Origin: Alphaproteobacteria bacterium
GTDB taxonomy: Bacteria > Pseudomonadota > Alphaproteobacteria > RF32 > CAG-239
Direction of reading: 5' to 3'
Assembly: GCA_017471705.1 (NCBI GenBank)
Contig: JAFUSH010000052.1
Location: 14,869-78,868 of the forward strand
Length of the DNA stretch: 64,000 nt
Position 1 is the stretch's first letter, and each line of letters opens with the position of its first letter. Below are positions 2,001 through 39,936 of this stretch, in pieces. The notes beneath the pieces were generated by a model. The model did no database searches. It was not told where the DNA came from and saw only the letters and a program-made list of their open reading frames with translations. A program made the translations under genes and the position numbers.

Positions 2001-2085
2001 AATGGTTCTCCATAAATTTTGTTAAGGCAAACGCGCCGATAATAATAGCCACGCCTGCAACAATAATGATTGTGTTAATTGACAA
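1987..2085 (-). CDS. possible 32-aa single-pass membrane peptide (TTG start)
   Basis: AAGGGAG lies 8 nt upstream of TTG. The product (M)SINTIIIVAGVAIIIGAFALTKFMENHYDKK is hydrophobic. It fills the only gap in the operon. Not in the ORF track (under 60 aa). Confidence 0.25.
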   Translation of the reverse strand: MSINTIIIVAGVAIIIGAFALTKFMENHYDKK

Positions 2086-2090
2086 TGATT

Positions 2091-2550
2091 TTACTCCCTT
2101 GCTGTGATGTCTTTTTTGAAATAAATGATGACAGTGCCGGAATTATTACCTTTGGCCGCTCTACCGGTAGCCGGATCCACAAAGCTAACTCTGCCGGATA
2201 AAATCTCGTAAAAGAATTTTTTGTAAATGTATTGATGGAAAGCGCGGCAGTCTGTGCAATTTGAGGGCAATACCATGACGACAATGGCACAATCGCCGTT
2301 GATGACTTCATCATAAGCTTTGGCGATAAAAGCGGCTTTTTGGCTGAATGGTGGATTACAAAAGACACGTTCCCCCCCCCCATGAGGTTTGCAGGGCGTT
2401 AATACCCTGATCAAAATACAAGCCGCGTGGTGCTTTGCAGTTGGCGGTGGTGCAAGCAGCGTCAAGTGTGAAATTAAAAACACGATCAAGCTGCCGATAA
2501 AGAAAATCCGGTGTTTCAAAGCCGTCGTTACCTTTAACATTCATCTTCAT
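2091..2550 (-). pseudogene. Dam-family DNA N6-adenine methyltransferase interrupted by a poly-G(10) frameshift (OFF state)
   Basis: N-terminal half is MKMNVKGNDGFETPDFLYRQLDRVFNFTLDAAC...SWGGG. The catalytic half ERVFCNPPFSQKAAFIAKAYDE... lies in another frame. The two are joined at the C run 2372-2381. With 10 G the N-terminal frame reads TCLL-stop. Confidence 0.8.
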
Positions 2551-2726
2551 TTTTTCTGTCCTTTAATGGGTTTAAGATCCTTTAAGAGTTCACGTGCAGC
2601 GATTTTTACGCGCGCAAGCTCGCTAAAAGGGTTGCTATAGCTTTCAGTGGCCAGATCTGCAACACGCTCGATAACTTTCGGATCAACAGCAATTTTGCGT
2701 TTGAATGGGTTAAGCTCTAGTTTCAT
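2547..2726 (-). CDS. hypothetical protein (59 aa, MKLELNPFKRK...)
   Basis: Internal ATG at 2726 lies just after the dUTPase stop and has an upstream AGGA-type RBS. The longer ORF-track form overlaps dut. Confidence 0.45.
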   Translation of the reverse strand: MKLELNPFKRKIAVDPKVIERVADLATESYSNPFSELARVKIAARELLKDLKPIKGQKK

Positions 2727-2728
2727 AC

Positions 2729-3175
2729 TTAATCCTTTCCGGTGCTGCCAAACCCTCGCGTGCCGCGCTCGGTGGGTGTGAGTTCTTTGGCTGTGACGAC
2801 TATCGGTTTGAAAATCGGGCAAACAACAAGCTGCGCAATGCGCTCGTTCGGCTCGATGGTTACCGGTGAGCTACTAAAATTAAACAGTGTGATTTGAATT
2901 TCACCACGATAAGAGGCGTCTATTGTGCCGAATTGGGCAACAATACCCTTAACAGTGTGGCCGGAGCGTGGTCTGACTTGCAGCTCATATTCAAGCGGAG
3001 CAAGCCGCTGCGCTGTGTCGATTTCAACAGCAATGCCGGTGCCGACAGTTGCGCGGCCATGCGGATCTATAACAAGAGGATCTTTGATTGCAGCACGCAG
3101 ATCGTAGCCGCTGTCGCCGGCGCGTGTGTGCAGTTCTTCTGTTTCAGGGAATAGATATTTAACTTTAAGCTGCAT
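2729..3175 (-). CDS. dut: dUTP diphosphatase (trimeric dUTPase)
   Basis: Motifs AGDSGYDLRA, RPRSGH, GTIDASYRGEI and the C-terminal ERGTRGFGSTG. Confidence 0.9.
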   Translation of the reverse strand: MQLKVKYLFPETEELHTRAGDSGYDLRAAIKDPLVIDPHGRATVGTGIAVEIDTAQRLAPLEYELQVRPRSGHTVKGIVAQFGTIDASYRGEIQITLFNFSSSPVTIEPNERIAQLVVCPIFKPIVVTAKELTPTERGTRGFGSTGKD

Positions 3176-4604: not shown

Positions 4605-4659
4605 AAAATATGCCAATTTGGCACAAATGTCAATATAAAAATATGCCAATTAAGCATAT
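4605..4659 (-). promoter_or_regulatory. Leftward early promoter with operator palindrome in the spacer, plus an upstream operator-like site
   Basis: On the minus strand: TTGACA (4633-4628), then a 17-nt spacer containing TGCCAAATTGGCA (4611-4623), then TATTTT (4610-4605). A second imperfect palindrome, ATATGCCAATTAAGCATAT, lies at 4641-4659. Confidence 0.6.
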
Positions 4660-4664
4660 TTTTA

Positions 4665-4708
4665 TTCACAACAAGAGAAAAGCCTGAAAAATAAAGGCTT
4701 TCAGGCTT
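4665..4708 (-). terminator. Intrinsic terminator ending the repressor/membrane-protein transcript
   Basis: 10-bp stem AAGCCTGAAA/TTTCAGGCTT (4680-4689 / 4699-4708) followed on the minus strand by TTTCTCTTGTT. Confidence 0.7.
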
Positions 4709-5107: not shown

Positions 5108-5464
5108 CTATCTTTCATTTGATTTTTGCGGTGGCGTGAGCGGTTGGCCAGAATGTTCAGAACTGTCTGTTTGTGTTGATATATTCTGATTATTTCCGCT
5201 TTGCGGTGTGGTTGTTTTACGGATCATGCGTAAAATTTCGCGCTCTTCCGGTGTAATTTCTTCCGGCTGCCATTCTTTTGGTAGTAGCTCGTATGGCTTG
5301 ACATCAAGCGCAGCGGCGATTGCCGGTATATACTCCATATCAAGGCCGCGCTCCCCTTTTTCTATGCGGCCAAGATTTGTATAAGACATACCGATTTTCT
5401 CCGCAAGCTGCTGCTGCGTTAATTTTCGCGCTTGTCTTAATTCTTTTATTCGGTTTGTCTGCAT
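5108..5464 (-). CDS. CI-like XRE-family repressor (no S24 peptidase domain)
   Basis: HTH IKELRQARKLTQQQLAEKIGMSYTNLGRIEKGERGL. Divergent from a Cro-like gene. Operators lie in the intergenic region. Confidence 0.8.
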   Translation of the reverse strand: MQTNRIKELRQARKLTQQQLAEKIGMSYTNLGRIEKGERGLDMEYIPAIAAALDVKPYELLPKEWQPEEITPEEREILRMIRKTTTPQSGNNQNISTQTDSSEHSGQPLTPPQKSNER

Positions 5465-19869: not shown

Positions 19870-21444
19870 ATGGCTATGAATAACACATATACGCGCCAAG
19901 TGCAAGCTGCACCGACAGATCTTAATCCACATCAGAACTATGTGGAAGAGTATGACGCAATGAACGAATTGGTGCAAAACGCCGTTGCAACCGGCCAGAA
20001 TATTATCAATACCTACGCAAAAGCGCGTGATGATAATGAGCGCGAAACAACAAAATTACTTGTTGATGAACGCAATGAAAAGCTGAAAAATGCTATGCGT
20101 GAGGTGCAGCTCAATCAAGATCCGGCAACATGGGAAGAAAATTACAAGCAGCGTTTTGATGAAATTGATGAAGAATACAAAGGCCGAGTGCCGGCTAGAT
20201 ATACCGACGAATACAACCGGTGGAATGAATTAAATGACAGTCGCAACTTGATGGATCTACGCTTTGCTCAAACGAAAAAAACGCAGGAAATAAACCGCGA
20301 ATTGTTGTTTGATCGGGTGGAACGTAACGCTAAAAATGCGATTGGCGCTGACGCCGGAACGATGGCCATGCTTGACGCTGATACCAAAAACAGCTTAGCC
20401 GGTGCCTTAAAGCGCGGCCAGATTAGCCGATTACAATATGACAAAGCTATGCGCAACTATGGTGAAAGCAAAACATACAACACGCTTTCAGATCGGTTAA
20501 TCAGAGATCCGGAGGGATTAAAGCTTGACTTGGAAAAAAATGCGTATGGCCTGAACGCTAAAGATTTGAAGAGTTGGAAGTCAAAAGTTGATCATGAATT
20601 GAAGATAAACGACTTAACAAATAAGACGGCTGAAAATAATCAAATTGAGGCGCAGGCTTTGACAGCGATGGAAATGATTAAAAATAAGCAGCAGCCGCCA
20701 CAAACATTGCTTGATCAATTACCGGAAAAGACAAAAGAGGCAATGCAAAAAGTGCAGTTTTATGCCGTTACCGGTGATGATGTTCCGACGGACACACAAA
20801 CATACGGCTTTTTGAATGATATGCGGCAGAATTATCCTGAACGGTTTAAGAACTTGAATTTGTATGATTATGCCGGATCTTTAAGCGGTGAGGATTTACA
20901 AGCCTTACGCTATGCGCAGCAGTCAATCGTGATCGGTTTGGACGGTAAAGCAAAGGTTAATCCGACAATTAGCCATAACGATCAAGTGCTGAAAGTAGCA
21001 CATAGCAGCTTAGGATTTAAGCAAAACAGTCAAGAAGCTTATGATTTTGACAGGCTTTATGATGGTGAAGTGCGCGCTATTATCAATGAAAAAGGCCGTA
21101 TGCCGACACAAACGGAGCAAGATGATATTATCAAGCGCCTGCGCAAGTCGGTGGCCACACGTCGTGACTGGTGGTTTGACGGTGACAAAGAGGCTCGCAC
21201 TTTGGAAGAAGATGACAGGCCTTATGTTAAAATGGAAGACATTGCGCCGAACACTAAAGAGGCGATCCTAAACATTATCAAAAACGATAAAAACTTTAAC
21301 ACGCTGCTCAAGCTTAACGATGAAGAACAAAATCAGATGGTTGAGGAAATGGCCGGCGTTTATGAGCGGCCGAATGAGCAATGGAATGACGCCACAAGAA
21401 ACGTCATAAACAGATATTTGGATATTGCAAGCAGGAGAAAATAA
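19870..21444 (+). CDS. internal virion protein (T7 gp15 slot, 524 aa)
   Basis: ATG at 19870 follows an AAGGAG RBS. Helical, charged protein. Synteny supports the call. Confidence 0.6.
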   Translation: MAMNNTYTRQVQAAPTDLNPHQNYVEEYDAMNELVQNAVATGQNIINTYAKARDDNERETTKLLVDERNEKLKNAMREVQLNQDPATWEENYKQRFDEIDEEYKGRVPARYTDEYNRWNELNDSRNLMDLRFAQTKKTQEINRELLFDRVERNAKNAIGADAGTMAMLDADTKNSLAGALKRGQISRLQYDKAMRNYGESKTYNTLSDRLIRDPEGLKLDLEKNAYGLNAKDLKSWKSKVDHELKINDLTNKTAENNQIEAQALTAMEMIKNKQQPPQTLLDQLPEKTKEAMQKVQFYAVTGDDVPTDTQTYGFLNDMRQNYPERFKNLNLYDYAGSLSGEDLQALRYAQQSIVIGLDGKAKVNPTISHNDQVLKVAHSSLGFKQNSQEAYDFDRLYDGEVRAIINEKGRMPTQTEQDDIIKRLRKSVATRRDWWFDGDKEARTLEEDDRPYVKMEDIAPNTKEAILNIIKNDKNFNTLLKLNDEEQNQMVEEMAGVYERPNEQWNDATRNVINRYLDIASRRK

Positions 21445-21445
21445 A

Positions 21446-24400
21446 ATGGGTGTATTTGATGAAATTAAACAGCAAGAACAGCAGAGCTTGAACACAAGTG
21501 ATCAAGCTAGTGATCAAGCTGCTGCGCCGGTATTAACGGAGAATGTTTTTGCGCCGGTTGCAACCGATAGTCAAACTATGAAAGATAATCAAATACAAGT
21601 GTTTTCTCGTGATTGGCGTCAACAAAGCGATGATGATATGGAGCAACATATTGCCGCCGGATTTATTAAGCGTGAAGACGCCGATCCGGTGCGTTGGAAG
21701 TCTGCGATTGAAACCGCAAAAGGCTTGGGTTATGACGAAAAAAGCTACGATTTGATTTATGATGACTTGCCGGAATATCAAAAACAGTGGAAAGAAAAAG
21801 AATTGCGCCGTTATTATGATAATTGCGACACAATGAAAAATATGTGTATAACTGATAAAAATTTCTTGAACACGCTTGATGATAAAACAGCTAAAGATTT
21901 GTATGACATCAATTTTAATTTGGCCGTATATGGTCAACCGAATGAGCCGAATGCGGTATGGGCGTTTGGTCAAAGAGTTGCTTATCAAACCGGTCGGAGT
22001 GAGAAAAGCATACAAACCGGAAAACTGGCCGGCAATATTCGTGGCAAGCGTGGTGATGAACGCGCTGCAGCGATTGCCGCATGGCGTAAAGAACATGATC
22101 AGTTAATCAGAATGCCGGAAATAGATACCTCCGGCTATGGCGTAGAAGATTTTGTTATGGCAGCAGCAGATCAGTTGCCGATTATGGCCAGAACAACGGG
22201 CGCAGTTGTTGGTGGAACTCTCGCCGGTGGTGCAGCCGGTGCCGGTGTTGGCTCGGCGGTGCCGGTAGTCGGAACAGCCGCCGGTGGTGTGGCCGGTGCA
22301 AAGGCTGGTTGGGTTGCCGGCAACGCTTTGGCCGCTTATGAAAGCTATCAAATTGAGGCAAACAGCATGACTGAAAGCCTTTTGGATATTACTGATAAAG
22401 ACGGTCTGCCGCTTGAGGATTGGGTTGTTGACGGTGCGTCATACGCTTATGGCGCGATTGCAGCCGCGATTGAACTTGTGCCGATGAAAGCAGTAACAAA
22501 CACAATCCCCGGAATGAAAAACATCACAAAGGTTGGAATTAAGCAGGCTCTTAAAGAGGCAGTAAAAGACAAGACAAAGCGGCAAGTGATTATGCAGATC
22601 ATTAAAGATTATGGTTTGGCGGTTGCCGGTGAAAGTGCCGAAGAGGCTGCGCAACAATTTACACAGGCTGAATTTACACGCGGTGCAAAGGCTTTAATGA
22701 ATGCTTTGTATGACACAAGTTTTGAACAGCAATCTTTTGCAAATGATTTGGCTGAAAGCGCGGAGGCTGCTATACAGGCCGGTAAAGCAACCGCAGTGAT
22801 GGCCGGTGCAAGCAGTGCAACAAGAGTGCGGCCGGAATTGCGCACATGGCAACGCGATCAGGAGGCAAAGCAACTTAAACGCGGTCAAGAGGTAAAGGCA
22901 CAATATGACGCGCAGCGCATGGACGAAGTGGCAGAGGCCGCGCAATCGTATATGCAAAAACCAAGTGCAGAACGAGCAACGCTCAAAAAATATATGCAGC
23001 AAGCCAAAAACAGCAGCGTTTATCAAGATATTTATATGTCGGCCGATGACGCACGCGCGGTGATGATTTCAGAGGCGGTGCAGAAAAATAAAGCTGCGCT
23101 GCAGGAAAGCGGCTTATATGATGATATTGAGCGGCAAATTGAGCAGGCTGATCAACTCGGAACGCCGGTGCGTATTGCTTTTGAAACTTTTGGCTCGGAA
23201 ATTATGGCCAGTCAAGAGCTGTATGCTGCATTTAAGGACGTTATTAAAACTTATGAGAACGGTATCACTATGCAAGAATTGCGCGTGGAGGCCGAACAAC
23301 GGCAGCAGGTGCGCAACAATATTGAAAAAGCAGCCAAAGACAATGCCAGTGATTATGAATACGCTTATCAGTATATTTTGGAGCAAGAGGTTGCCGGTGG
23401 TATTGATCAACAACGCAGAGGCTATACAGCAGAAATGTTGGCCAAAGTTATGACTTATATGGCCAAAGAAACAAAACAGCCGATCAATGAAGTCATGGCA
23501 AAGTATGCGCCAAGTTTTGAGCGCTCTTTTGATGGTAGTGTTGGTGGTGGCCAGACGGTGCAAGATATTATCAGCACAATCAGAAAATCGGCGCAAGATA
23601 AGGAAGTGCAAAACCTTATGAAACGCGCCGGAGAACTCGGCAAGCGTGACGCACGCAAGATTGCAAAGATCTTAGGCAAACATTTGGATAATGCAGCCGC
23701 CGGAGATGTGCAGCAATTTATGCGTGTTGTTAATGCAATCGGCGATATGAAACTCAATATTGAGGCTATGACTGACGAAGATATTGCAAACAGTTTGGAT
23801 AGTTATACAAAATCCGGTGATGTGCAACTCAATATTAAGCGTGATGACGCAGATAGAGTAAAAAGCGGCATTTTCTCGGCTAGTGAAAAGGCTTTGAGCG
23901 ATATACAGGCAAACGGTCAAGACAGCGATTATGTTGTGGTTGGCGGTGGCAGAATACCGGTGCAATATCAAATTGTTGAGCTGAATAATATGATCACCTC
24001 ACATGATGACGCCGGTGCGGTCAATGAGAACTATCCGCAAGAGCTGCAACCACGCGACAGATCCAGATCGGCAAGCGATACGCAAATTGCAAGTATTGTC
24101 AATAATTTTGCGCCGGAACGTGTCGGACAGGCAGAAATTGCAACAGAGGGCGCGCCGATTGTGACGCCGGAGGGGTTTGTTGCCGTCGGTAACGGCCGCG
24201 CAATGGCTATCCGTCAAGTGTATAAAAATGCCGAAAAAGCGCAAGCATACAAGGATTATTTGGCCGGCAAAGGTTATGATCTGAACGGATTTGAGCAGCC
24301 GGTATTGGTGCGCAGATTAGCCATAGAGATGAATAATGAGCAGTTAAAGGCTTTGGTTGATGACGCAAACACGGCCGGAACTATGCAATATTCAGACAGT

Positions 24401-27400
24401 GAAAACGCTTTGCGTGACGCTGATAAAATGAGCGGCAATTTGCTTGATTTGCTTGATATGGAGGCAGATATTGACAGCGCAGCAAACAGACGCTTTTTGA
24501 ACGCATTTTTTGCCGAAGTTGTGCCGACGGCCGAACGCAATGCTTATTTGGATAAAGACGATAAGATTACACGCAAAGGTGTTGAGCGCGTTGAAAATGC
24601 TATTGTGGCCAAGTTATTACCTGACGCCAGAATGCTCTCAATCTTGGTGGAAAATCCTGACAATAATATCCGCAAAGTTACAAAAGAGTTAGCAAAGGCT
24701 GCGCCGGCAATTATCTCGTTTGAGAATGATATTGCCGCCGGCCGGATCAATGCTGATTATTCTATTGCCGGTGATGTTACAGGCGCGGTGGATTTACTCA
24801 AACGCGCAAAGGATCGCAATGTTACGGCAGCAGAGTTTATTGCTATGCGTGATATGTTTGAAGAGCCGATTTCCTCAAGCACGCAAAATATGGTGCAACT
24901 CTTTGAAAAATCTACCGGTGCGACTGATTTCCTCAACAAGATCCGCAGCTATATCCGGCAAGCCGGCGAACAAGGCGATATGAGCCAAGATAATATGTTT
25001 GGTATGCAGCCGGTGAGCAAAACGGAATTATTGGATAATTTGGCCAGACAAGAGAGTTTGTTTCAATTCGCCGGTGTGAAAGCACAAACCGCAGCGATGG
25101 ATCAGCTTGAACAAGCCAAGCGGCTTGAGGCTCAAGGTGTTGACGCTGAACAGATCCGGCAGCAAACAGGTTGGTTTAAGGGTGCTGATGGTAAATACAG
25201 ATTTGAAATATCTGATAAAGATCTTAGTATTGGTGAAAAGTATCACAGCGCAAAATGGAGATCAGAACACCTTGTTTATGCAGGTCTTAGTCACAATCTT
25301 GATGGCATTATAAAACACGATAAATTATTTGCCGCATATCCGCATTTACGGAAGTTGCAAGTTGAATTTTCTTTCCAGTTACCGGAGGGTGTTTTAGGTA
25401 ATTATGAAGACAATCGTATTACGCTTTCAAATAAAATGGATCAGTCGCAAACACTTTCAGTTTTAATGCATGAAGTGCAGCACGCAATACAGGAATATGA
25501 GAACTTTGCGCGTGGTGGTAATAGTAACACGATAGCAGAACAAATTGAGTATTATAAAGAAGTTATCCGTCGGTATAATACTTCGGCTGACGCGGTAGAG
25601 CTTGAGAATGCTATCGATAACTATGAATTTATTGGTGACGTTATCAATACAATAGAGGTATCAGAAAAACCTGAAAAAGTCATGAAAAAAGCATGGTATC
25701 GTGAGCATGTATTTGGCACGCCAAGAGGCAAAGCAGCTAAGGCTTTCTTGCAAGAAAAAGCTCAAAACTATATTGACGATTTGCGCGATAAATATAAAGC
25801 CGCTGGCAATGTTGTTTATATGGATTATCTTGATATTCTGCAAAATGGCAACATGAACGATCTGAAAAAGCAATATAAATCTATTCAGGCCAGAATTAAA
25901 CGTTTGCGCGAAAAAGCTTTTCCGAAAGAATATACAGCTGCACATGAGTGGATTGCTCGGTTTGAGGACGGTAAATTGAGTAGCCAAGAGTTATATAAGC
26001 GCTTGGCCGGTGAAATAGAGGCACGCAATACACAAGCACGCCTTAATATGACGGAAGAAGAACGTAAAGCAACGTCACCGGAAAGCACTCAAGATGTGAA
26101 AAATGCTGACGCTATTGTTGTATTTGATGACGGCACGGCGATGGATTATGAGCCTAAAACTCAACGTAAAGGCCATAAAGTGCATAGTGTTTTTGATTTA
26201 AGAGTTGGCGATAAGACGGCAATCGGTGATGTGCAAGAAATTAACGCCGAAAACCGCACAATCAAAATCAATGATAAATTACACTCTATGCTTATGCTTG
26301 ATACGCAGATACAGTATAAAGGCTTAACTGTATATGATAGCCAAGAGCAAAAAGAGGTTGTTGATATGCCGGAAGAACAAACGCCGGCAGATGTTAAAAA
26401 GGCAACCGGTGATCTATCGGTTATAAAGGAACAAAAAAAACATAATACTGAATATAACAAAGCGGCGATAGAATATTTTGGCCTAACAAATAAACTTTCG
26501 GAAACCGGATATATTTTGACTGACGGTAACCTTTTGGATTTGAGCGGCAAAAATTTTGGCGGATCGCCGAATATCAGATCACTTGATCATAGAGATGTGT
26601 TAAAACCTTTAGAGCCGTGGCACGCTAAAATGGAAGAATTTATCAATTCGGGTAATATTCGCTATTTACCAGAGGGGGATAAATTACTTATGAGCAATAT
26701 GCCGACGCCGGCACAGCTCAAGGTTATTGAGCGTATTATTGATAAAACTGGCGGCAATATTACGATTGAGTTAATGGGCGACGCTAACCGTTGGGGAATG
26801 AATAAAAATGATTTCTACAATGAATATACAAACACATCATTTAATCAAGTAAAGCGTGATATAAATGCTTTTTATAAAGGTGATGGTGTGCGTGAAATTA
26901 CGCGGTATTATCAAAAAACACCGGTAACAAACGCCAAAATCGCCAAGCTACAAGAGGGTTTGCAACAGTGGGAAAAGTATCTTGCCGAAGTTGTTGAGCC
27001 GAATAAATACGGTTGGTATGCTGACGCAGTGGAAGATAACCGGAAAAACGCAAAGCGCAAGATTGCTCAATTTAAGAAAGAGATTAAAAAAGAGCAAGAA
27101 AAAGCCGCCGTGCCGGTTGGCGAAAAGTTGTATGCAACGCATAACATGAGTTTGGCCGGTGTTAAAGGCGCATTAAATCTTGGCGGTTTAGCTATGCCAT
27201 CACTTGCTTTACGGAAAGTATCACAAGGGAATATCAATCAATTTGGCGACATTGTTTTTGTGGCTAATGAGAAAATGGTTGAGCCAAGTCGAACAACGGA
27301 TATTTTTGACCGTGACGCATGGACACCAAGCATTGCTAATTCTATGCGCTACGAATTACTGCCAAGCGGTAATACATTTATAAAGAATGTGTTGGCTAAA

Positions 27401-30400
27401 GTCGGCAGAGAAAATGAGCTGTCGGTATTTGTGTATAATATCAGCGACAATCTCGATACGCCAAAAAGTAATGATATGGCACTGGAATTATATGCACTTG
27501 ACAAGGGAATTGAGCTTGATCCTTATGAAACGCTACACAGCCAAGAATATCTTGACTGGTATGATGAAAATATTATGGGTAATTCAGAGCCATATTTATG
27601 GACTGAAAATGCTAGTAATACGGACATGGTGGCCAAGAAATTCACGCTTGATAATATCATGAAGATCTTAAAAAAACAGGAACGCGCAGGCGGCGGCTTT
27701 TTAGGTGATCAGGTTTTCAGCGCAAGAAATTTGCTTAACTTTATGGCTAAAAAATATAAAAATCTTGACGAAGTGCGCAAAGATAAGCACAAACTTGTAT
27801 CTGCCGAAGAGCAAAATGCTTTCTTTCAAAAGATTGATGAGAGATTTTGGGATTTGGCCGCAGAGCTTAAACTTGAAGATCGTGACTATAATTACGGCAG
27901 CGATCGCATGGGGTTGGCTGTTGCGGCTATCAATGCGGACAATGGCGATGATGTTATTAAAAAACGCTTAGCCGGATATTATCTTGACACTTCTGACGCA
28001 GCAGTGGCTAAAGTTAAAGAATTTAGCAATATGATGAAAGAGGTATTAACCGATTATTTTGAGGTTAAACCGCGTCGTGTTGTCAATTTTAGTGAGTTTT
28101 CCGGTGTAATTATACCGGAAGGCAAGGAATATGACGACGTGGCCAAGCAGCTTGAGCAGGAATATATTACGGTTGAGCGCGTTAAAAAAGGTGACACCGC
28201 TGATTATGAGCGCGCTTTAATGAATATCCAAGCGAATGCTGAAACAACGTTTTTCCAAAATCAAAAGATTGATATGGAGGCGTTGGGTGCATATACGCCG
28301 GCAGAGCGCAAGATCACTCTTTTCCGCAACAACAATCTTTCAACGCTTATTCATGAAAGCGGCCACTATTGGCTTGATATGTTGCAGCAATTTGCGCAAC
28401 TGCCGACAGCCAGTGAAAAGCTGAAAAATGATTGGGCAACCGTTAAAAATTGGCTCGGCGTTGGCGACGATAACGTGGTCACAGAAGAGCAGCACGAAAA
28501 ATTTGCGCGCGGCGTTGAAAAGTATTTTTTGACACGTAAAGCACCATCTGCCGGCTTAGCCAAAATATTTGACACTTTCCGGCGGTGGCTCGTTTCGGTG
28601 TATAAAGATGTGAAAGAGCTTGACGTTGATTTGAATGATGATGTTGAGCGCGTTTTTGATCACATGCTCGCAAGTGAAAGTGAGATTGAAGAGTATGCAC
28701 AAGCGCAGCAATTTGCCGACATGATGGAGGCAAGCACCAAAGGCTTAAGCAAAGCAGATCTTGAAAAGTATGCAACGCTTACCGAACAGGCAATGACAAT
28801 GGCCAAGGATAAACACTTGACGGATAAGGTGGCTTTAATCCTGAAAGAAGAAACGGAGGCCTACAAAGAAAAGCAGCAGCAGCTTAAAGATCAGGTTTTG
28901 GAAGAGTGGAGCAAGGATAACACAAACAAAGCTGTTTATATTCTGGTGACAGGCGAAGTGCCGCACGGTCACTTAGATATTAAGATCAATACAGAAGAGC
29001 TGCGCAATTTGCTTGGTGAAAACTTTGATAAATATGCGACTTTTGGCGGCCGGCCGATTTTTGCCGATGACGGCATAAGTTTGACTGATTTGCAGGAATT
29101 TACCGGATTAACAAAAGATCAGGTAAAGGCTGCGCTTTTGACAGCGCGGCAGCGTATGCGTAACTTTAAGCAAGCACTACAACGCCGCACGCATGAGGAG
29201 CTTGGCGATCCGGTAACCTATGATGATGTGCAAAAGCAGGTGATTGCTGCTTATTATAACGATAAGCGCGCGCAACTGTTGGATTTGGATCTGAAAAGTT
29301 TGGCCGGCGATAACGCAAAGCGACAAGCTGTATCTACACAAGGCTTTAAGAAGTGGGCAACCGACACAATCAGCCGGATTGCAATTAAAGACTTAAACCC
29401 TGAACAATACAGCAGAGCCATGCAATTTGCCGGTGATAAGGCGATGGCTGCACTTAATCACGGACAGCGTGACTTAGCTTATAGGTTTAAAATTCAGCAG
29501 ATCCGCAATTTTGTGCTGTTTCGTGAGGCTAAAGACAGACAGGCCGAAGTTGAAAGCACACTGCGCCGGTTGAAGCAGATCGGCAAGCAGGAAGTCAACC
29601 ACGATATTGATCAGGTTTATCAAGACGCCGTGCGCGCACTCTTAAGCCGCTTTACTCTCTCCAGAGCCTTAACGCAAAAGGCAAAAGAACGGCTTGGTAA
29701 TTTGAGCGCATGGATCTTGGAGCAACGCAGCAACGGCTATGATATTGTTGTGCCGGCAGATTTGTTGGAGAAAAACAACGGCACAAGCTATGCAGAGCTG
29801 ACGGTTGATGAATTTCTGACACTTGGTGAAAGCGTCAAAAGTTTGGTCACAAACGGCCGCGCAATCAAACAATTTGAGCTTGAGGGTGAACTGATTGAAA
29901 GATCTAAACTTTTGAATGAGTTTGCCGCGCAACTGCGTAAAACATACAAAGGCCGCGATATTCAACGCACCGGTAAAAAACATTTTAAGGGTATATCTGA
30001 AATGCTTGCACCGGCCGACGCAGCAATCGTGATGTTTGGTGATTTATCTAACCGGATTGACGGCTATGACACAAACGGTGTTTTTCACCGGTTATTCTTA
30101 CGGCCGATGACGGAGAGCCAAAACAGAGAAAATGAACTGCTGCGGCTCTACGGTGGCAAGATGAAAGAGCTGCAAGAGGCATTACCGGAATGGGTAAAAA
30201 AGCAGTTGTTTGAGAATGTGGCGGGCGCAAAAGATGTGCTTGGCGCGGATTATACGCGCGGCGAATTGATAAGCATTGCCTTAAATATGGGTAACTTAAG
30301 CAACCTGCAGCGTTTGCAAGACGGTAATGGATTTTCTGACGAACAGCTTGCATGGGTGGCCGGCACGTTAAGTCAAGAAGAATGGGATTATATTCAAGGT

Positions 30401-31996
30401 GTATGGGACACGCTTGAAAGTATGTATCCTATGCTTGCAGAGCACCATAAAAAAATGAGCGGCTTGGACATGGATCATGTTTTAGCCTCTCCGGTGGTCA
30501 CGCCGTATGGTGTTTATAAAGGCGGTTATTTTCCGTTGTTCTACGACAGATCGGCTGAAATAGAGGCGCGACGCAATAACAGTTTAGAGCAAGCACTGCT
30601 TGAAAGTGATTACGGCCGCGCAACAACAAGCGCCGGATATACAAAACAACGTCAAAACATTGTTAAAGAGGCGGTTAAGTTTGATCTTGGATTGATACAG
30701 CGGCATTTAGCAAGCGCAATTCATGATCTGGCTTGGCGCGGTAATATCCGGCAGATGTGGAATATGGCGAATAATCCTGAATTTATGGCCACAATGGACG
30801 GCTATTTACATGAAAGCTATCGGCAGCAGCTTATGAAGTTAATCAAAGATTTGGCAAACTCTACAAACAGAGAGGCTAGAGAGATGACTTTTGCTGAACG
30901 TATGGCGCGCAACATGCGTGTTGCACGCACCACAATCGGCTTAGGCTTTAGGGTTAAGACTGCGGTTAAGCAGCTCACCGGTTTTGCTCAATCTACGGCT
31001 ATTATGAAACGCTACGGCCATAAAAATAAAGGCAAGCACAGCGGCACATATTGGCTCGTTAAAGGCACAAAGGCTTTCGCAAGCGATAAAGCGACACGTG
31101 AATGGTGCTTGGCAAACAGCGGAGAGCTGCGCACGCGCTTGAATAACATGGACGCAAATATTGCGGAGGCCATGAAAGGTGTTGCCTCAAAGCAATCTAA
31201 ACTGCAGAAGATCGATGAAAGCATTTATAATGCCGCCTTTTGGGCAATCGGCAAGGTTGATGTTTTCACTGCAGAGAGCACTTGGTATGGCGCATATTTG
31301 CAGGCAATCAATGACTTTGGCTATAAACATAAGGACGCGGTATTTTATGCCGACAGAGTTATGATTGAAAGTCAAGGCTCCGGTAACCTGAAAGATAAGC
31401 CGGCTATGCAACGCAAAAACGAATGGGAAAAAATGTTTTTGATGTTTTACTCACCGTTTAGCGGTATGTATGGCTTATGGACTTCGGTCATGCGTGACAT
31501 ACGCGATGGTAAAGAACGCAGCAAAGCACTTGCTGATTTGGCGGTGGCTATGTGTCTGCCGGCTTGGCTTGACGCATTGGTTGACGGTGATCAACCGGAC
31601 GGCGATGATGATTTGGCTGAATGGTTAAAATTCTTCTTGCTGCGGCCGATAATGTTTTGGGCGTCAACAATGCCGATCACGAGAGATTTAGCAAGCTACT
31701 TTGAATTTGGCCGCGCTCAAGGCTTTTTCGGTGATACATTTAAGGCAATAGCAGATCTGCCGAAAGTTATCACAAGCGATAAATGGACAGCCGGCAAGCG
31801 TGTTAATACAGTGATGAACGCAACAGCGCAAATTGCCGGCACGCTCGGATATAATATACCGATCGGAGGACAGCTCGCTGACTGGACGCAATGGCTGACA
31901 GATGTGGCCGCCGGTAATATCAAAATCGAAAGTCCTATGAATGTGATCTGGGGCGTTTGGCGTGGTAAAGACGGCAAGCCGCAAGATAAAAAATAA
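21446..31996 (+). CDS. giant polyvalent internal virion / ejection protein (3516 aa; T7 gp16 slot)
   Basis: Single uninterrupted ORF. ATG at 21446 follows a GGAGAAAATAAA RBS region and the previous stop. Gly-zipper hydrophobic block at ~22189-22340. ParB-like ...NYPQELQPRDRSR...VAVGNGRAMAI at ~23935-24325. Zincin motifs HEVQH (25469-25483) and HESGH (28352-28366). Confidence 0.85.
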   Translation: MGVFDEIKQQEQQSLNTSDQASDQAAAPVLTENVFAPVATDSQTMKDNQIQVFSRDWRQQSDDDMEQHIAAGFIKREDADPVRWKSAIETAKGLGYDEKSYDLIYDDLPEYQKQWKEKELRRYYDNCDTMKNMCITDKNFLNTLDDKTAKDLYDINFNLAVYGQPNEPNAVWAFGQRVAYQTGRSEKSIQTGKLAGNIRGKRGDERAAAIAAWRKEHDQLIRMPEIDTSGYGVEDFVMAAADQLPIMARTTGAVVGGTLAGGAAGAGVGSAVPVVGTAAGGVAGAKAGWVAGNALAAYESYQIEANSMTESLLDITDKDGLPLEDWVVDGASYAYGAIAAAIELVPMKAVTNTIPGMKNITKVGIKQALKEAVKDKTKRQVIMQIIKDYGLAVAGESAEEAAQQFTQAEFTRGAKALMNALYDTSFEQQSFANDLAESAEAAIQAGKATAVMAGASSATRVRPELRTWQRDQEAKQLKRGQEVKAQYDAQRMDEVAEAAQSYMQKPSAERATLKKYMQQAKNSSVYQDIYMSADDARAVMISEAVQKNKAALQESGLYDDIERQIEQADQLGTPVRIAFETFGSEIMASQELYAAFKDVIKTYENGITMQELRVEAEQRQQVRNNIEKAAKDNASDYEYAYQYILEQEVAGGIDQQRRGYTAEMLAKVMTYMAKETKQPINEVMAKYAPSFERSFDGSVGGGQTVQDIISTIRKSAQDKEVQNLMKRAGELGKRDARKIAKILGKHLDNAAAGDVQQFMRVVNAIGDMKLNIEAMTDEDIANSLDSYTKSGDVQLNIKRDDADRVKSGIFSASEKALSDIQANGQDSDYVVVGGGRIPVQYQIVELNNMITSHDDAGAVNENYPQELQPRDRSRSASDTQIASIVNNFAPERVGQAEIATEGAPIVTPEGFVAVGNGRAMAIRQVYKNAEKAQAYKDYLAGKGYDLNGFEQPVLVRRLAIEMNNEQLKALVDDANTAGTMQYSDSENALRDADKMSGNLLDLLDMEADIDSAANRRFLNAFFAEVVPTAERNAYLDKDDKITRKGVERVENAIVAKLLPDARMLSILVENPDNNIRKVTKELAKAAPAIISFENDIAAGRINADYSIAGDVTGAVDLLKRAKDRNVTAAEFIAMRDMFEEPISSSTQNMVQLFEKSTGATDFLNKIRSYIRQAGEQGDMSQDNMFGMQPVSKTELLDNLARQESLFQFAGVKAQTAAMDQLEQAKRLEAQGVDAEQIRQQTGWFKGADGKYRFEISDKDLSIGEKYHSAKWRSEHLVYAGLSHNLDGIIKHDKLFAAYPHLRKLQVEFSFQLPEGVLGNYEDNRITLSNKMDQSQTLSVLMHEVQHAIQEYENFARGGNSNTIAEQIEYYKEVIRRYNTSADAVELENAIDNYEFIGDVINTIEVSEKPEKVMKKAWYREHVFGTPRGKAAKAFLQEKAQNYIDDLRDKYKAAGNVVYMDYLDILQNGNMNDLKKQYKSIQARIKRLREKAFPKEYTAAHEWIARFEDGKLSSQELYKRLAGEIEARNTQARLNMTEEERKATSPESTQDVKNADAIVVFDDGTAMDYEPKTQRKGHKVHSVFDLRVGDKTAIGDVQEINAENRTIKINDKLHSMLMLDTQIQYKGLTVYDSQEQKEVVDMPEEQTPADVKKATGDLSVIKEQKKHNTEYNKAAIEYFGLTNKLSETGYILTDGNLLDLSGKNFGGSPNIRSLDHRDVLKPLEPWHAKMEEFINSGNIRYLPEGDKLLMSNMPTPAQLKVIERIIDKTGGNITIELMGDANRWGMNKNDFYNEYTNTSFNQVKRDINAFYKGDGVREITRYYQKTPVTNAKIAKLQEGLQQWEKYLAEVVEPNKYGWYADAVEDNRKNAKRKIAQFKKEIKKEQEKAAVPVGEKLYATHNMSLAGVKGALNLGGLAMPSLALRKVSQGNINQFGDIVFVANEKMVEPSRTTDIFDRDAWTPSIANSMRYELLPSGNTFIKNVLAKVGRENELSVFVYNISDNLDTPKSNDMALELYALDKGIELDPYETLHSQEYLDWYDENIMGNSEPYLWTENASNTDMVAKKFTLDNIMKILKKQERAGGGFLGDQVFSARNLLNFMAKKYKNLDEVRKDKHKLVSAEEQNAFFQKIDERFWDLAAELKLEDRDYNYGSDRMGLAVAAINADNGDDVIKKRLAGYYLDTSDAAVAKVKEFSNMMKEVLTDYFEVKPRRVVNFSEFSGVIIPEGKEYDDVAKQLEQEYITVERVKKGDTADYERALMNIQANAETTFFQNQKIDMEALGAYTPAERKITLFRNNNLSTLIHESGHYWLDMLQQFAQLPTASEKLKNDWATVKNWLGVGDDNVVTEEQHEKFARGVEKYFLTRKAPSAGLAKIFDTFRRWLVSVYKDVKELDVDLNDDVERVFDHMLASESEIEEYAQAQQFADMMEASTKGLSKADLEKYATLTEQAMTMAKDKHLTDKVALILKEETEAYKEKQQQLKDQVLEEWSKDNTNKAVYILVTGEVPHGHLDIKINTEELRNLLGENFDKYATFGGRPIFADDGISLTDLQEFTGLTKDQVKAALLTARQRMRNFKQALQRRTHEELGDPVTYDDVQKQVIAAYYNDKRAQLLDLDLKSLAGDNAKRQAVSTQGFKKWATDTISRIAIKDLNPEQYSRAMQFAGDKAMAALNHGQRDLAYRFKIQQIRNFVLFREAKDRQAEVESTLRRLKQIGKQEVNHDIDQVYQDAVRALLSRFTLSRALTQKAKERLGNLSAWILEQRSNGYDIVVPADLLEKNNGTSYAELTVDEFLTLGESVKSLVTNGRAIKQFELEGELIERSKLLNEFAAQLRKTYKGRDIQRTGKKHFKGISEMLAPADAAIVMFGDLSNRIDGYDTNGVFHRLFLRPMTESQNRENELLRLYGGKMKELQEALPEWVKKQLFENVAGAKDVLGADYTRGELISIALNMGNLSNLQRLQDGNGFSDEQLAWVAGTLSQEEWDYIQGVWDTLESMYPMLAEHHKKMSGLDMDHVLASPVVTPYGVYKGGYFPLFYDRSAEIEARRNNSLEQALLESDYGRATTSAGYTKQRQNIVKEAVKFDLGLIQRHLASAIHDLAWRGNIRQMWNMANNPEFMATMDGYLHESYRQQLMKLIKDLANSTNREAREMTFAERMARNMRVARTTIGLGFRVKTAVKQLTGFAQSTAIMKRYGHKNKGKHSGTYWLVKGTKAFASDKATREWCLANSGELRTRLNNMDANIAEAMKGVASKQSKLQKIDESIYNAAFWAIGKVDVFTAESTWYGAYLQAINDFGYKHKDAVFYADRVMIESQGSGNLKDKPAMQRKNEWEKMFLMFYSPFSGMYGLWTSVMRDIRDGKERSKALADLAVAMCLPAWLDALVDGDQPDGDDDLAEWLKFFLLRPIMFWASTMPITRDLASYFEFGRAQGFFGDTFKAIADLPKVITSDKWTAGKRVNTVMNATAQIAGTLGYNIPIGGQLADWTQWLTDVAAGNIKIESPMNVIWGVWRGKDGKPQDKK

Positions 31997-32082: not shown

Positions 32083-34764
32083 ATGACTATTCCTGCAAGT
32101 ATGCCGGCAAAGGCCACCTATCTGGGTGATGGGGTAACGGTTAATTTTCCGGTGCCATTTATATATTTTGAAAATACCGACGGAACAAAGCAAATAAAAG
32201 TTATTCTTGCCGATGAAAATGGTGAAAATGAAGTTGTGCAGGTAGAAAATACCGACTTCACAATCACCGACGCCGGCCAAAGTAACGGAACATTAACGAT
32301 GTTAAGCGCGCCGCCGGAAGACTATATTTTAACAATCGCTTATGATATACCGGTTGAACAACTCGTTGATTGGGAGGAGTTCGGTCGCTTACCAAGCGAA
32401 AGTATAGAGGCTGCGGTTGATAAAATAACGGCAATTATAAAACAAATTTATGAAATATTGGGGCGTTGCGTTAAGGTAACAATAAGCGGCAAACAAACCC
32501 CGGAAGAGTTGCTTGCTACAGTTTATGAAAAATTAGACAGTGCAAGTGCGATTGCGGCGCAGGCAATCACTGCTGCTGATAATGCCACAACAGCGGCTAA
32601 CAATGCAACCGCGGCGGTGGCAAGTGCAGAGCAAACGCTTGAAAATGTTACAGCTTATGTTGACGCGGCAGAGGAAGAGATAAGAGAGATTAAAGCCGCA
32701 GCTGAAAGTGAGATTGACACTAAGGTTACAACCGCAAAAGGTGAGATTGACGGTGCAATATCCAGTGCTATTGAGGACGTTGAGGCGGCAGCTATTGCGG
32801 CGGCTCAAGAAGTTATTGACAGTGCGGCTGAAAGCGCAACGGAAACAGCTAAAGCAAATCTTGACACTTATGTTGATGAAACAGTTGAGCCAAGTTTGCA
32901 GTCGTTTGTTGACGCGGCGCAGGCACAAGCCGGTAGTGCGTCATCTTCTGCCTCGTCTGCGGCACAAACTTTAAGCACTATTCAAACAACAGCCGCGCAG
33001 TTTGATACGAATTATACAACAAAACTTTCGGCATTTAATCAGAACGCAACGGATAAGACAACAGCTTTTAACAGCAATGCGTCTGACAAAACAACGGCGT
33101 TTAATGATAATGCGGCGGCTAAACAAGCTCTTATTGACACAAGTGCAACCGCGGCACAAAACGCGGCAAGTGCGGCGGCAACAAGTGAAACAAACAGCGC
33201 AAATTCAGAAGAAAATGCGTATAAATCGGAATTGAAAGCGGCGGCTTATGCTGAACGCGTTAGAAGTGAGGGAATCCCTATGAGCATTATTGAAAACAAA
33301 AAAATTGAAATATCCGGCAATACGGTAAAACTTTACTGGCGCGATCCGCGTGACACGATTATTGACGGCTTTGTCTTATCGTCTTGGAAAAGCACAACGA
33401 TTGTGAAAAAACAAGGTAGTGAGCCGGAAGATATTGACGACGGCGATATTGTCGCAATCGTGACAACGCGCAATCAATACGCAAATACACCGCTTGAAGA
33501 TACACAAGCAAACGCAGAGCAATGGCATTACCGTGCATTTCCTTTATCGGTTAATGGCGTTTATTCGCTTGATAAGCGCAACATTTTCGGCACGGTGCTA
33601 TATGGGTATAGGATAAACAATGTTGATGGTGTGCCGTCATCTAAAGTTGAATATTTGCCATATTGCGATAACTACTTTTATGATCCGTGTGTTATGGATT
33701 TTCTCGGTGATAAATTTAACTGGGGTGACTGGGAAAAAGCCTTTTTTATCCCTAAACCTTGCTTGTTATCAACCGCCGGAACGGTTACATATTACCTTTC
33801 AAAGGATAACTTTAACTATCGTGAGGACGGCGTTACGGCAAGTGATGTGTCCAATTCAGGCGTAAATGGTAATTTTATGTGTGAGTTTCCGTCTATCTTT
33901 GTTAAGGTATGGGAAGAAAAGAACTATATCAACGTGCTTGTATCAAACAAAAAACTTGATGACGATTTTGAATGTTGGGCAACCAAAAAATCTGACGGCA
34001 CTTATGCTGATAACTTTTATTTACCGATGTTTGAGGGAACAAGTATCAATAATGTTATGCGCTCTATTGCCACAAACGGCAAACCTACAGGAAGCTTAAA
34101 CGCAGAAACAGAGGCGACACACGCAACCGCAAACGGCACCGGTTGGAACACAACCACTTGGGCAGATGAAATGCTTATGATGTTGCTGTTTCCGCTGTTG
34201 TTTAAGTCAACAGACAGTCAAACGGTGTTAGGATATGGTGGCTCAAGTTCTTCAAGCGCGCTGACGGTTAATAATAATGCCGCACTTGATAAGGGTTTGA
34301 TGTATGGCACAAGCGCTGGCAGTGCCTATGGTATGACTTATTTAGGCTTACATAACTGGTGGGGGCATAGGTGGCGCCGTCCTAACGGTTTAATGAATGA
34401 TAACGGCAATTATAAATTTAAGCTGACACATAGCACAGTGGACGGCTCAACCGTTACCGGTTATAATCGGAGCGGCAACGGCTATATTTCAAGCGGTGTT
34501 AGACCGCCGGAGGCAAGCGGTAGTTATATCAATTATTATCAGCCTATCGGTAAATTTGGTATAGTGCCAAAGCTGACAAGCGGCTCAAGCACAACACACT
34601 ATTGCGATGGTATGTGGACGAATAACGGACAACTGGATCAGCTTTTTCTCGGTGGCTCTGTTAATTACGGTGCTCTCTGTGGCGTTTTCGCGTTTAATGT
34701 TTACAACCTACCTTCGAACACTTATTGGTACTTCGGCGCGTCGCTCTCTTATCATCACCTTTAA
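32083..34764 (+). CDS. tail fibre / receptor-binding protein with C-terminal DGR variable region
   Basis: N-terminus ATYLGDGVTVNFPVPFIYF is like the T7-type fibre N-domain. An Ala/Thr-rich coiled shaft follows. The C-terminal ...GGSVNYGALCGVFAFNVYNLPSNTYWYFGASL pattern resembles C-type-lectin-fold VR sequences. Occupies the gp17 slot. Confidence 0.85.
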   Translation: MTIPASMPAKATYLGDGVTVNFPVPFIYFENTDGTKQIKVILADENGENEVVQVENTDFTITDAGQSNGTLTMLSAPPEDYILTIAYDIPVEQLVDWEEFGRLPSESIEAAVDKITAIIKQIYEILGRCVKVTISGKQTPEELLATVYEKLDSASAIAAQAITAADNATTAANNATAAVASAEQTLENVTAYVDAAEEEIREIKAAAESEIDTKVTTAKGEIDGAISSAIEDVEAAAIAAAQEVIDSAAESATETAKANLDTYVDETVEPSLQSFVDAAQAQAGSASSSASSAAQTLSTIQTTAAQFDTNYTTKLSAFNQNATDKTTAFNSNASDKTTAFNDNAAAKQALIDTSATAAQNAASAAATSETNSANSEENAYKSELKAAAYAERVRSEGIPMSIIENKKIEISGNTVKLYWRDPRDTIIDGFVLSSWKSTTIVKKQGSEPEDIDDGDIVAIVTTRNQYANTPLEDTQANAEQWHYRAFPLSVNGVYSLDKRNIFGTVLYGYRINNVDGVPSSKVEYLPYCDNYFYDPCVMDFLGDKFNWGDWEKAFFIPKPCLLSTAGTVTYYLSKDNFNYREDGVTASDVSNSGVNGNFMCEFPSIFVKVWEEKNYINVLVSNKKLDDDFECWATKKSDGTYADNFYLPMFEGTSINNVMRSIATNGKPTGSLNAETEATHATANGTGWNTTTWADEMLMMLLFPLLFKSTDSQTVLGYGGSSSSSALTVNNNAALDKGLMYGTSAGSAYGMTYLGLHNWWGHRWRRPNGLMNDNGNYKFKLTHSTVDGSTVTGYNRSGNGYISSGVRPPEASGSYINYYQPIGKFGIVPKLTSGSSTTHYCDGMWTNNGQLDQLFLGGSVNYGALCGVFAFNVYNLPSNTYWYFGASLSYHHL
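33031..33129 (+). repeat. Three tandem 33-nt (11-aa) repeats within the fibre shaft
   Basis: AFNQNATDKTT / AFNSNASDKTT / AFNDNAAAKQA, with synonymous differences between units. Confidence 0.7.
34641..34746 (+). repeat. DGR variable repeat (VR)
   Basis: Ungapped 106-bp alignment to 34929-35034 with 12 mismatches. Eleven of these lie opposite TR adenines. Confidence 0.9.
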
Positions 34765-34773
34765 GGGGGTTGC

Positions 34774-34795
34774 AAAGGGGGATTTCTCCCCCTTT
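34774..34795 (+). promoter_or_regulatory. GC-rich hairpin downstream of VR (DGR target-recognition element candidate)
   Basis: AAAGGGGGA-tttc-TCCCCCTTT, a perfect 9-bp stem with a 4-nt loop, 28 nt after the VR end. No T tract follows. Confidence 0.6.
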
Positions 34796-34928
34796 AGCAT
34801 TAAGCTCGGCGTTAGCCGAATCGTTTAAAATATTATTATGGAGTGCAACGAAAATTTAACCTTTTGTTGTATAAAAGATAAACGGGATTGTGTGGGCGAC
34901 CTGTCGGGCGCTGTTTTTCCCTTTTCGG

Positions 34929-39933: not shown

Positions 39934-39936
39934 ATA

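Follow-up and report, generated by a model that had tools for sequence, protein, structure and literature searches.

A length-variable poly-G tract in a phage Dam-family methyltransferase gene is a probable contingency locus for DNA methylation

A poly-G run in the adenine methylase open reading frame (ORF) of Bordetella phage BPP-1, bpm, is said to have been described by Liu et al. in 2004 as a frameshift hotspot. When we checked this tract in the genomes, it was G8 in BPP-1, where the gene is in frame, G9 in BIP-1 and G10 in BMP-1. Here we describe a poly-G tract in another phage methyltransferase gene, located on a stretch of 64,000 nucleotides (nt) from an Alphaproteobacteria bacterium (assembly GCA_017471705.1, contig JAFUSH010000052.1, positions 14,869 to 78,868 of the forward strand). 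We refer to this whole stretch as the window. It consists of about 1.5 tandem copies of a temperate phage genome of 42,130/42,131 bp, and on the minus strand of each copy the tract splits a dam gene into an N-terminal half (N-half) and a catalytic C-terminal half (C-half). Comparing the tract across hundreds of contigs, we conclude that it is probably a slippage-prone contingency locus, which would toggle phage DNA methylation as a bet-hedge.

The likeness to BPP-1 extends to the whole phage. Both are temperate podophages of ~42 kb with a diversity-generating retroelement, and both carry an early-operon DNA adenine methylase gene with a poly-G run (for dam, the operon is a predicted one). The portal, tail, giant protein and reverse transcriptase of the window phage are distant homologues of those of BPP-1, with 20-34% amino acid (aa) identity. 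The methylases, however, differ. Bpm is a 251-aa protein of PF01555 (N6_N4_Mtase, 2.9e-33) in which DPPY comes first and FxGxG last, whereas the window protein has 152 aa and belongs to PF05869. The run precedes motif I in bpm and motif IV in the window gene. A search of the window ORFs against BPP-1 returned no match to bpm, and the window protein matches PF05869 only. Because both the family and the position of the run are different, we take the two tracts, from their sequences, to be convergent and not homologous. The two cases also differ in scale, a handful of genomes for bpm versus hundreds of contigs here.

A homopolymer in a phage DNA-modification gene is also known from T2, in which an A-run within agt frameshifts reversibly ~1000-fold faster than point mutation, with escape from either of two opposing restriction systems, TgvAB or McrA/BC; T4 rIIA is another phage contingency locus, and methyltransferases are absent from the same preprint apart from a citation of BPP-1 (Gomez, Barrick & Waters, bioRxiv 10.1101/2025.10.21.683753). 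The mechanism in agt is the same as the one that we propose for dam. By contrast, T2 and T4 have A-runs, are virulent coliphages (agt encodes a glucosyltransferase) and were studied experimentally, whereas the window has a G-run in a methyltransferase gene of a temperate phage, examined by comparative genomics alone. Repeat tracts in phages are not confined to DNA modification. Campylobacter Fletchervirus phages are reported to have G7-G11 runs in receptor-binding protein genes, which give mixed progeny (Sorensen et al. 2021); there the tracts hit host recognition proteins and not DNA modification. In Bibersteinia trehalosi, the prophage enzymes M.Btr192IV and M.Btr189ORF5700P are orphan N6-methyladenine (m6A) methyltransferases with an in-ORF (CAAG)12, the significance of which was left open (PMC4996451). 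They differ from the window protein in being Hia5-like promiscuous enzymes of the EcoDam type, with a tetranucleotide repeat near the 5' end. We also considered the Campylobacter CJIE1 prophage, with its 'adenine methylase plus homopolymeric tracts', as a precedent and rejected it, the tracts being in host genes.

Among bacterial hosts, the phasevarion literature describes repeat slippage that turns N6-adenine methyltransferases ON and OFF, in Type III Mod, in Type I systems and, through a poly-G run, in the Type IIG enzyme cj0031. The initial annotation had compared the window gene with these systems; bpm, which it did not mention, is the closer precedent. The comparison stands as far as both work by repeat-driven ON/OFF switching, but the gene is not a member of the class. 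Phasevarions are chromosomal, derive from restriction-modification systems (mod/hsd) and re-program a host regulon; the window gene does not come from such a system, has no adjacent nuclease, and is a phage-borne orphan that probably lies in a lytic early operon. For the enzyme itself, the nearest characterized counterparts are two small phage methyltransferases. The lactococcal M.Phi93DAM methylates GATC, guards against DpnII and sensitises to DpnI (PMC4190342), and methylation thus carries both a benefit and a cost. PamA of a Staphylococcus aureus prophage, a protein of 141 aa with NPPY at residues 64-67, also methylates GATC, and alters host gene expression and virulence (PMC12435837). Their size and motif position suggest that both belong to PF05869: like the window protein, they have ~140-150 aa and an NPPY/F near residue 65 as the single conserved methyltransferase motif. 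Neither a repeat tract nor switching is mentioned in the available portions of these two papers. We found no description of a repeat-controlled or phase-variable PF05869 protein or phage Dam in the literature that we could cover, most subscription journals lying outside it.

In the window, positions 1-21869 are repeated as 42131-64000, which allows the two genome copies to be compared. Neither the 2371 nt preceding the tract nor the 19,488 nt following it contains a mismatch. The copies differ solely in tract length, C10 versus C11 on the plus strand (Table 1), exactly as the initial annotation had reported. These two tracts are the only C or G runs of at least 8 in the 64 kb, and A or T runs of at least 9 are absent from the 64-kb window; a C9 match is expected by chance 0.1 times per window. 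The source contig of 80,052 bp amounts to ~1.9 tandem genome copies, an abnormal concatemer in which the copies again differ solely at the tract. The presence of G10 and G11 in one contig is plausibly compatible with a mixed population in which a G10/G11 bubble made the assembler traverse a circular genome two times. If this is the cause, both G10 and G11 would be abundant in the source sample.

The length of the tract sets the reading frame of everything behind it. Base counting predicts the junction WGGERVF for 9 G and WGGGERVF for 12 G, and an intact enzyme of ~152 aa results from 6, 9 or 12 G. A tract of 7 or 10 G yields a stub of 63-64 aa without motif IV, and one of 5, 8 or 11 G yields the N-half followed by an out-of-frame tail of ~98 aa. 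Both window copies are therefore OFF, copy 1 encoding a 64-aa stub and copy 2 a 158-aa chimera. The initial annotation had proposed that the minus-strand N-half is of the Dam family, that the catalytic half with NPPF is in another frame, that 10 and 11 G are both out of frame and that 9 or 12 G would restore the gene. All of these proposals are borne out by our results, including the near-cutoff PF05869 match of the N-half, the +1 frame of the C-half down to its stop at 2091, and the match of the repaired 152-aa protein to the same family.

Several products are annotated around the junction. Those of the window ORFs are in NCBI as MBQ8482412.1 and MBQ8482466.1, both on the one 80,052-bp contig of a metagenome-assembled genome (MAG), and chimeras of the copy 2 type are also called in other assemblies (P0125, P0131, P0134). 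An ATG at the 5' edge of the tract (44512-44514 and 2382-2384; TC-ATG-G...) shares the frame of the catalytic half at G5, G8 and G11, and gene callers give 95-97-aa proteins from it that begin 'MG(G)(G)ERVF...'. No Shine-Dalgarno-like sequence is evident upstream of this tract-edge ATG. Upstream of the C-half, its own frame stays open as far as an ATG at 2540, which makes a 149-aa ORF (2091-2540, minus strand); an exact look-up of this ORF in the contig index gave no record. In addition, the alternative +1 frame of the C-half (2075-2383, minus strand) is open for all 93 codons, which 2.5% of synonymous resamples match. The idea that this open frame encodes a second product under conservation, or serves against polarity, was considered and dropped as a main explanation: the p value is ~0.025 in the window species, and the frame is not kept in the wider family, being open over the entire C-half in 14% of tract-bearing relatives and in 0/10 relatives without the tract.

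The two halves together make a recognizable enzyme. The repaired 9-G protein of 152 aa matches PF05869 (Dam) with E = 8.7e-21 and 74.8 bits (cutoff 28.1) over profile positions 7-146 of 169, and also matches phrog_111 (DNA methyltransferase, 1.5e-32). Taken separately, the C-half covers profile positions 62-146 with 39 bits against the cutoff of 28.1, and the N-half covers positions 6-60 with 27.6 bits, slightly below it. These two segments of the profile are adjacent. In the repaired protein, the catalytic motif IV, (N/D)PP(Y/F), takes the form NPPF (residues 65-68). In an alignment of 53 homologues, W57, R61, F63 and N65-P66-P67-F68 are invariant, and so is the D30/A32 strand in the N-half. 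The N-half holds the invariant T13-P14 as well as the D30-A-A-C33 strand, which is probably a motif-I-like region binding S-adenosylmethionine (AdoMet). Neither half alone holds both essential motifs. Because the tract separates the motif-I-like half from the motif IV half, we infer that the truncated or chimeric products cannot be active.

The fold is consistent with this assignment. An AlphaFold2 (AF2) model of the in-frame allele P0001 (95% identical) reached a predicted local distance difference test (pLDDT) score of 87.5 and a predicted template modelling (pTM) score of 0.84, and both the model and its fold matches point to a Rossmann-like AdoMet-dependent methyltransferase. In the model, W57-G58-G59-E60 stands directly before strand 61-64, which leads to NPPF 65-68. 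Placed on this model, the tract codes for the loop W57-G-G-(G) right ahead of motif IV. The best PDB folds found by Foldseek were adenine-N6 methyltransferases, namely PCIF1/CAPAM (TMq ~0.7; itself an NPPF enzyme) and then KsgA, Erm, METTL16, CamA and EcoDam. A PDB sequence search found no relative, and no near-identical DNA was found among annotated phages. The closest proteins of cultured phages have <45% identity, with the lactococcal 936-phage homologues at 39%. We rejected the non-specific methylases Hia5/Hin1523 as relatives; they are 281-aa EcoDam-like DPPY enzymes, and the paper on them does not mention repeats. From its profile matches and predicted fold, we assign the product of the window gene to PF05869, the family of small phage 'Dam' proteins, as a predicted N6-adenine DNA methyltransferase of the orphan kind.

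We quantified the tract in same-species copies from large metagenome collections, which have 87-99% nt identity around dam. Lengths were taken from the DNA and from exact protein product junctions. Three alleles were in frame: G6 (WGERVF, 4 contigs), G9 (WGGERVF, at least 41 contigs) and G12 (WGGGERVF, 6 contigs). Five were out of frame: G5 (6-7 contigs), G7 (5 contigs), G8 (~35 contigs), G10 (14-17 contigs) and G11 (3 contigs and window copy 2). Overall, ~51 contigs were in frame versus ~63 out of frame, an ON share above the 1/3 expected from random frames (p = 7e-3, a rough value given that contigs are not independent). The OFF alleles have an intact C-half, with a protein identical to that of the ON alleles. 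The exact 64-aa G10 product of the window was found on 17 other contigs from at least 10 samples and from several studies and assemblers, some of them phage-sized at 42.2 kb, and the major G8 allele on at least 24 contigs. Samples with G10 include ERZ27256832 and SAMN15829993. Moreover, flanks separated by only 2-3 mismatches per 1.1-2.0 kb (99.8-99.9% identical) were seen with G5, G7, G8 and G10. Two sibling samples with near-identical flanks have different lengths, G7 in ERZ27255447 and G8 in ERZ27255443. Such recurrence of alleles, together with different lengths on near-identical flanks, rules out random miscalls as far as these assemblies go. By the same comparison, we take the tract to mutate orders of magnitude faster than its flanks. 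The initial annotation had left the choice between hypermutability in the population and in the reads; the recurrent G5-G12 series, the near-identical flanks and the coexistence of ON and OFF within sub-lineages speak for the population.

The alleles are not evenly distributed over contig types. The shortest and most stable tracts (G5 OFF in P0119 and P0153, G6 ON in P0152) are on host contigs of 123-387 kb, that is, in integrated prophages, and G7-G12 are mainly on phage-sized contigs of ~42 kb. Fixed prophages may stabilise the tract and so account for the short lengths on host contigs, or the pattern may be a sampling effect. A few copies also carry lesions near the catalytic motif. In P0088 a second, compensating frameshift wrecks the NPPF region, P0115 has SPPF, and the in-frame allele of P0160 has NPSF in place of NPPF. 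These lesions hint that some copies are decaying.

The tract is not restricted to the species in the window. It was found in several divergent gene lineages, on viral contigs, in MAGs of various metagenomes and in a cultured Faecalibacterium phage. ON and OFF alleles also occur together in sub-lineages at 60-75% aa identity: one has L043 ON with G9 and L031 and L040 OFF with G8, another has L034, L035 and L039 ON with G8+TAT and L044 OFF with G9, and a third has L001, L002, L004 and L025 ON and L009 and L029 OFF. We then scanned the NPPY branch of the family in IMG/VR for a tract at the same site, which gave at least 120 contigs (L078-L197). Among the matches listed, 105 of 109 distinct tract-bearing sequences, ON and OFF counted together, have intact halves; these 105 distinct genes comprise 52 in frame and 53 out of frame, and the ON share is again above 1/3 (p = 4e-4, rough, as contigs are not independent). 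A control scan for the same site with the two Gly codons interrupted (GGH-GGH) gave 61 contigs (L198-L258), and all 34 genes that could be classified were in frame (Fisher p = 5e-9 versus the tract-bearing NPPY genes among the matches listed). Other G/C runs of at least 8 in 1.63 Mb of flanks numbered 32, and 6/7 of those in clear coding context were in frame. The NPPY dam site alone has ~78 G runs of at least 8 among the matches listed, versus the 32 in all 1.63 Mb of flanks.

The cultured phage is FP_Lagaffe, whose genome is finished (NC_047911, 41068-41501; L265). Its gene, with G7+TATTGCGTG, is out of frame, and one more G (G8) would bring back WGGYCVFCNPPY. The annotation of this genome includes solely the C-terminal 97 aa, as a 'DNA methyltransferase'. 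A distant, GC-rich PF05869 gene (L042; JACCDR011387138.1, 3351-3381) has G7 at the same W-G-G position and is likewise out of frame, with G8 giving WGGFVFCNPPF, which suggests from the sequence that the tract has arisen recurrently. It is possible, and we advance it tentatively, that the G-run at W-G-G is a selected contingency locus throughout the PF05869 phage Dam family, with about half of its carriers OFF at any time.

Codon usage offers a separate view on the run. GGG is the rarest Gly codon of the phage (26/576, 4.5%), and two consecutive GGG are expected at 0.002. Nevertheless, every W-G-G allele codes GGG-GGG. Four conserved Gly residues elsewhere in dam use GGA, GGC or GGT and show free turnover among homologues, with GGG in 7/99. 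The residues between W57 and R61 vary in the close clade (EKE, SNE, SDQ, EQH, KNE and others). In IMG/VR, uninterrupted runs (at least 120) stand against 61 interrupted codings of W-G-G.

The carrier genome encodes a large terminase, a portal-type adaptor, a major head protein and tail proteins, along with the features in Table 1. The region of the integrase and tRNA-Thr gene (38680-40184) is likely the attachment region. Relatives of the phage are on MAG contigs of gut and rumen Alphaproteobacteria of up to 387 kb, which indicates that the phage is temperate. We describe the carrier as BPP-1-like, a temperate podophage whose hosts are uncultured Alphaproteobacteria of gut and rumen. Its retroelement has 11/12 mismatches between the template repeat (TR) and the variable repeat (VR) at TR adenines, and the second copy of the element begins at 74214, outside the window. 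Like BPP-1, the phage therefore has two independent hypervariation devices, the retroelement and the tract.

The minus-strand gene order around dam is dUTPase, a 59-aa ORF, dam, a small hydrophobic ORF, a LexA-type DNA-binding protein and a CxxCxxCC protein. The overlap of the 59-aa ORF with the dam start suggests, at the sequence level, translational coupling inside an operon. From the candidate promoter and terminator (Table 1), dam probably lies in the lytic early-left operon. No adjacent nuclease or specificity subunit was found among the dam neighbours of the window and its relatives, and without an adjacent nuclease the methyltransferase is considered an orphan. Regarding restriction sites, GTAC is nearly absent from the genome (1-42131), with 1 observed versus 55 expected, and TCGA is found 13 times versus 46. 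This depletion suggests strong, long-term restriction pressure in the host lineage. To look for a hint of the target site, we also counted GATC. It occurs 188 times versus 150 expected (observed/expected 1.25), which shows no avoidance, and the count is uninformative on specificity.

Table 1. Coordinates of the dam tract, its reading frames and other features of the 64,000-nt window (position 1 is the first base of the window)
Feature	Position	Strand	Description
Poly-G tract, copy 1 (C10 on plus strand)	2372-2381	-	10 G on coding strand; out of frame
Poly-G tract, copy 2 (C11 on plus strand)	44502-44512	-	11 G; out of frame
dam N-half, 64-aa ORF, MKMNVKGND...QTSWGGGTCLL*	2356-2550	-	ATG at 2550; residues 1-57 genuine, then GGGTCLL; TAA 2358-2356
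dam catalytic C-half, ERVFCNPPFSQK...ITARE* (ERVFCNPPF...ITARE)	2091-2371	-	+1 frame relative to N-half; TAA 2093-2091
Copy 2 chimera, 158 aa	44205-44681	-	N-half (1-57 and GGG) with 98-aa out-of-frame tail reaching beyond the normal dam stop
Copy 2 C-half ORF, 97 aa, MGGGERVF...	44221-44514	-	Start codon (ATG) shares bases with the 5' edge of the tract; NCBI MBQ8482466.1
59-aa ORF	2547-2726	-	TGA stop overlaps dam ATG (ATGA); precedes dam in all relatives
dUTPase	2729-3175	-	PF00692; conserved upstream neighbour in leftward operon
Promoter-like site TTGACA-17-TATTTT	4605-4633	-	Consensus scan; candidate start of leftward early operon with dam
Terminator-like hairpin, 11 pairs and T-run	4680-4708	-	Consensus scan; separates repressor-like helix-turn-helix gene (5108-5464) and membrane ORF from dam operon
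3523-aa ORF, tail/injection module	21425-31996		27% identical over ~1200 aa to BPP-1 Bbp10
Diversity-generating retroelement	32083-36291		Tail-fibre ORF 32083-34764; VR 34641-34746 at its 3' end; TR 34929-35034; reverse transcriptase 35158-36291
Tyrosine integrase	38680-39933	-	Adjoins complete tRNA-Thr(CGT) gene 40109-40184

The switch that we propose would work as follows. Slipped-strand mispairing at DNA replication would alter the run length in both directions; switching would be reversible, and the tract would be kept by selection as a contingency locus. ON phages would methylate their own DNA, and possibly that of the lysogen, and OFF phages would not. Methylated progeny DNA would be shielded from classical restriction, and unmethylated DNA would be safe from methylation-dependent defences and spared the cost of methylation. 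A mixture of ON and OFF would then act as a hedge between opposing defences. Our data show three of the features by which contingency loci are recognized: a repeat inside the ORF sets the frame, its length varies among near-identical genomes, and ON and OFF are both common, with the OFF copies otherwise intact.

The explanation that competes most directly on the same observations is a tolerated mutational hotspot, in which a run derived from W-G-G-E lies in a dispensable, weakly selected gene and frameshifts drift without adaptive switching. Over half of the contigs of the species are OFF, as this predicts, G5 alleles that would be slow to revert are found in integrated prophages on large contigs, and an in-frame allele has a variant motif IV (NPSF). 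Furthermore, W-G-G-E is conserved in distant family members, in which case G9 needs only two wobble G's and the run is easily created; the common position is for this reason weaker evidence of selection. Several observations speak against drift. OFF alleles lack second lesions, the halves are intact in 105/109 of the NPPY tract-bearing sequences among the matches listed, and ON exceeds the neutral expectation of 1/3. The run also persists unbroken by synonymous change despite a GGG usage of 4.5%, while the other Gly codons turn over, and uninterrupted runs outnumber interrupted ones in IMG/VR. We consider drift at a hotspot unlikely for these reasons. Other points also weigh against an adaptive switch and temper our confidence in it. 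The contig counts are not independent, since the same run may be present in both the ENA and Logan assemblies and strains are common to samples. Length heterogeneity within a sample is seen only in the G10/G11 pair of one contig, which the assembler perhaps mishandled. The operon assignment of dam comes from consensus scans only. Finally, the G5 alleles on 123-387-kb host contigs look locked-off and are possibly decaying, and P0160 lost the canonical NPPF while staying in frame.

The remaining explanations attribute the frameshifts to the data, to decoding or to the neighbourhood. Homopolymers are error-prone, one G7 contig (L046) has ~2x coverage, and the G10/G11 pair sits in an abnormal ~1.9-copy concatemer, so one might suspect a single true in-frame length with homopolymer miscalls around it. 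However, the same alleles appear across many samples, studies and assemblers (G10 on 17 contigs, G8 on at least 24, G5 on 7), the interrupted-Gly controls are in frame without exception, as are 6/7 classifiable cases of other G/C runs of at least 8 on the same contigs, and the finished genome of FP_Lagaffe is out of frame as well. An error rate of 50% is implausible in consensus sequences, and an artefact is almost certainly not the cause. Long homopolymers, mostly A/T runs, can provoke transcriptional slippage. Both halves are intact in the out-of-frame alleles, which would also be expected if these alleles yielded full-length enzyme by RNA polymerase slippage or ribosomal frameshifting and the tract tuned dosage. 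Such recoding is highly unlikely, because the +1 and -1 offsets are similarly frequent and no single mechanism rescues both, and because G6, G9 and G12, all in frame, are common, leaving no fixed 'programmed' length. Similarly small is the probability that the tract acts on its neighbours or makes a new product, either through polarity of the 7/10-G stop on downstream genes (LexA-like, CxxCxxCC, toward the integrase) or through a function of the chimera or the C-half. The tight packing of the operon with its upstream ATGA overlap, the fully open alternative frame of the window and the tract-edge ATG at G5, G8 and G11 would all suit this idea. But that frame is open in just 14% of tract-bearing relatives and in none of the 10 without a tract, the tail matches no family and resembles translated noise, and neither half alone combines the two essential motifs. 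A contingency locus that switches methylation thus remains the probable explanation.

Hosts, BPP-1 and T2 had already provided examples of repeat-driven switching of DNA-modification genes. Apparently new here are the family to which the enzyme belongs, a switch that keeps its position throughout a large clade, and evidence at the population scale in which about half of the copies are OFF. The switch is easily missed in annotation, where a tract-bearing dam is called as fragments of 60-100 aa or as 'hypothetical' proteins. FP_Lagaffe on Faecalibacterium prausnitzii, with its out-of-frame tract, is an experimentally tractable system, and public long-read metagenomes could tie tract length to m6A motifs. 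Orphan methyltransferases of phages are usually seen as fixed anti-restriction equipment, whereas here about half of the natural copies are off. If the switching is adaptive, phage populations would routinely mix methylated and unmethylated genomes, with consequences for host range, for the contest with Type II and Type IV restriction systems and for the way in which prophage methylases reshape host epigenomes. If the locus is family-wide, phages would commonly meet opposing host defences, restriction that methylation blocks and restriction that depends on it, by switching self-methylation stochastically.

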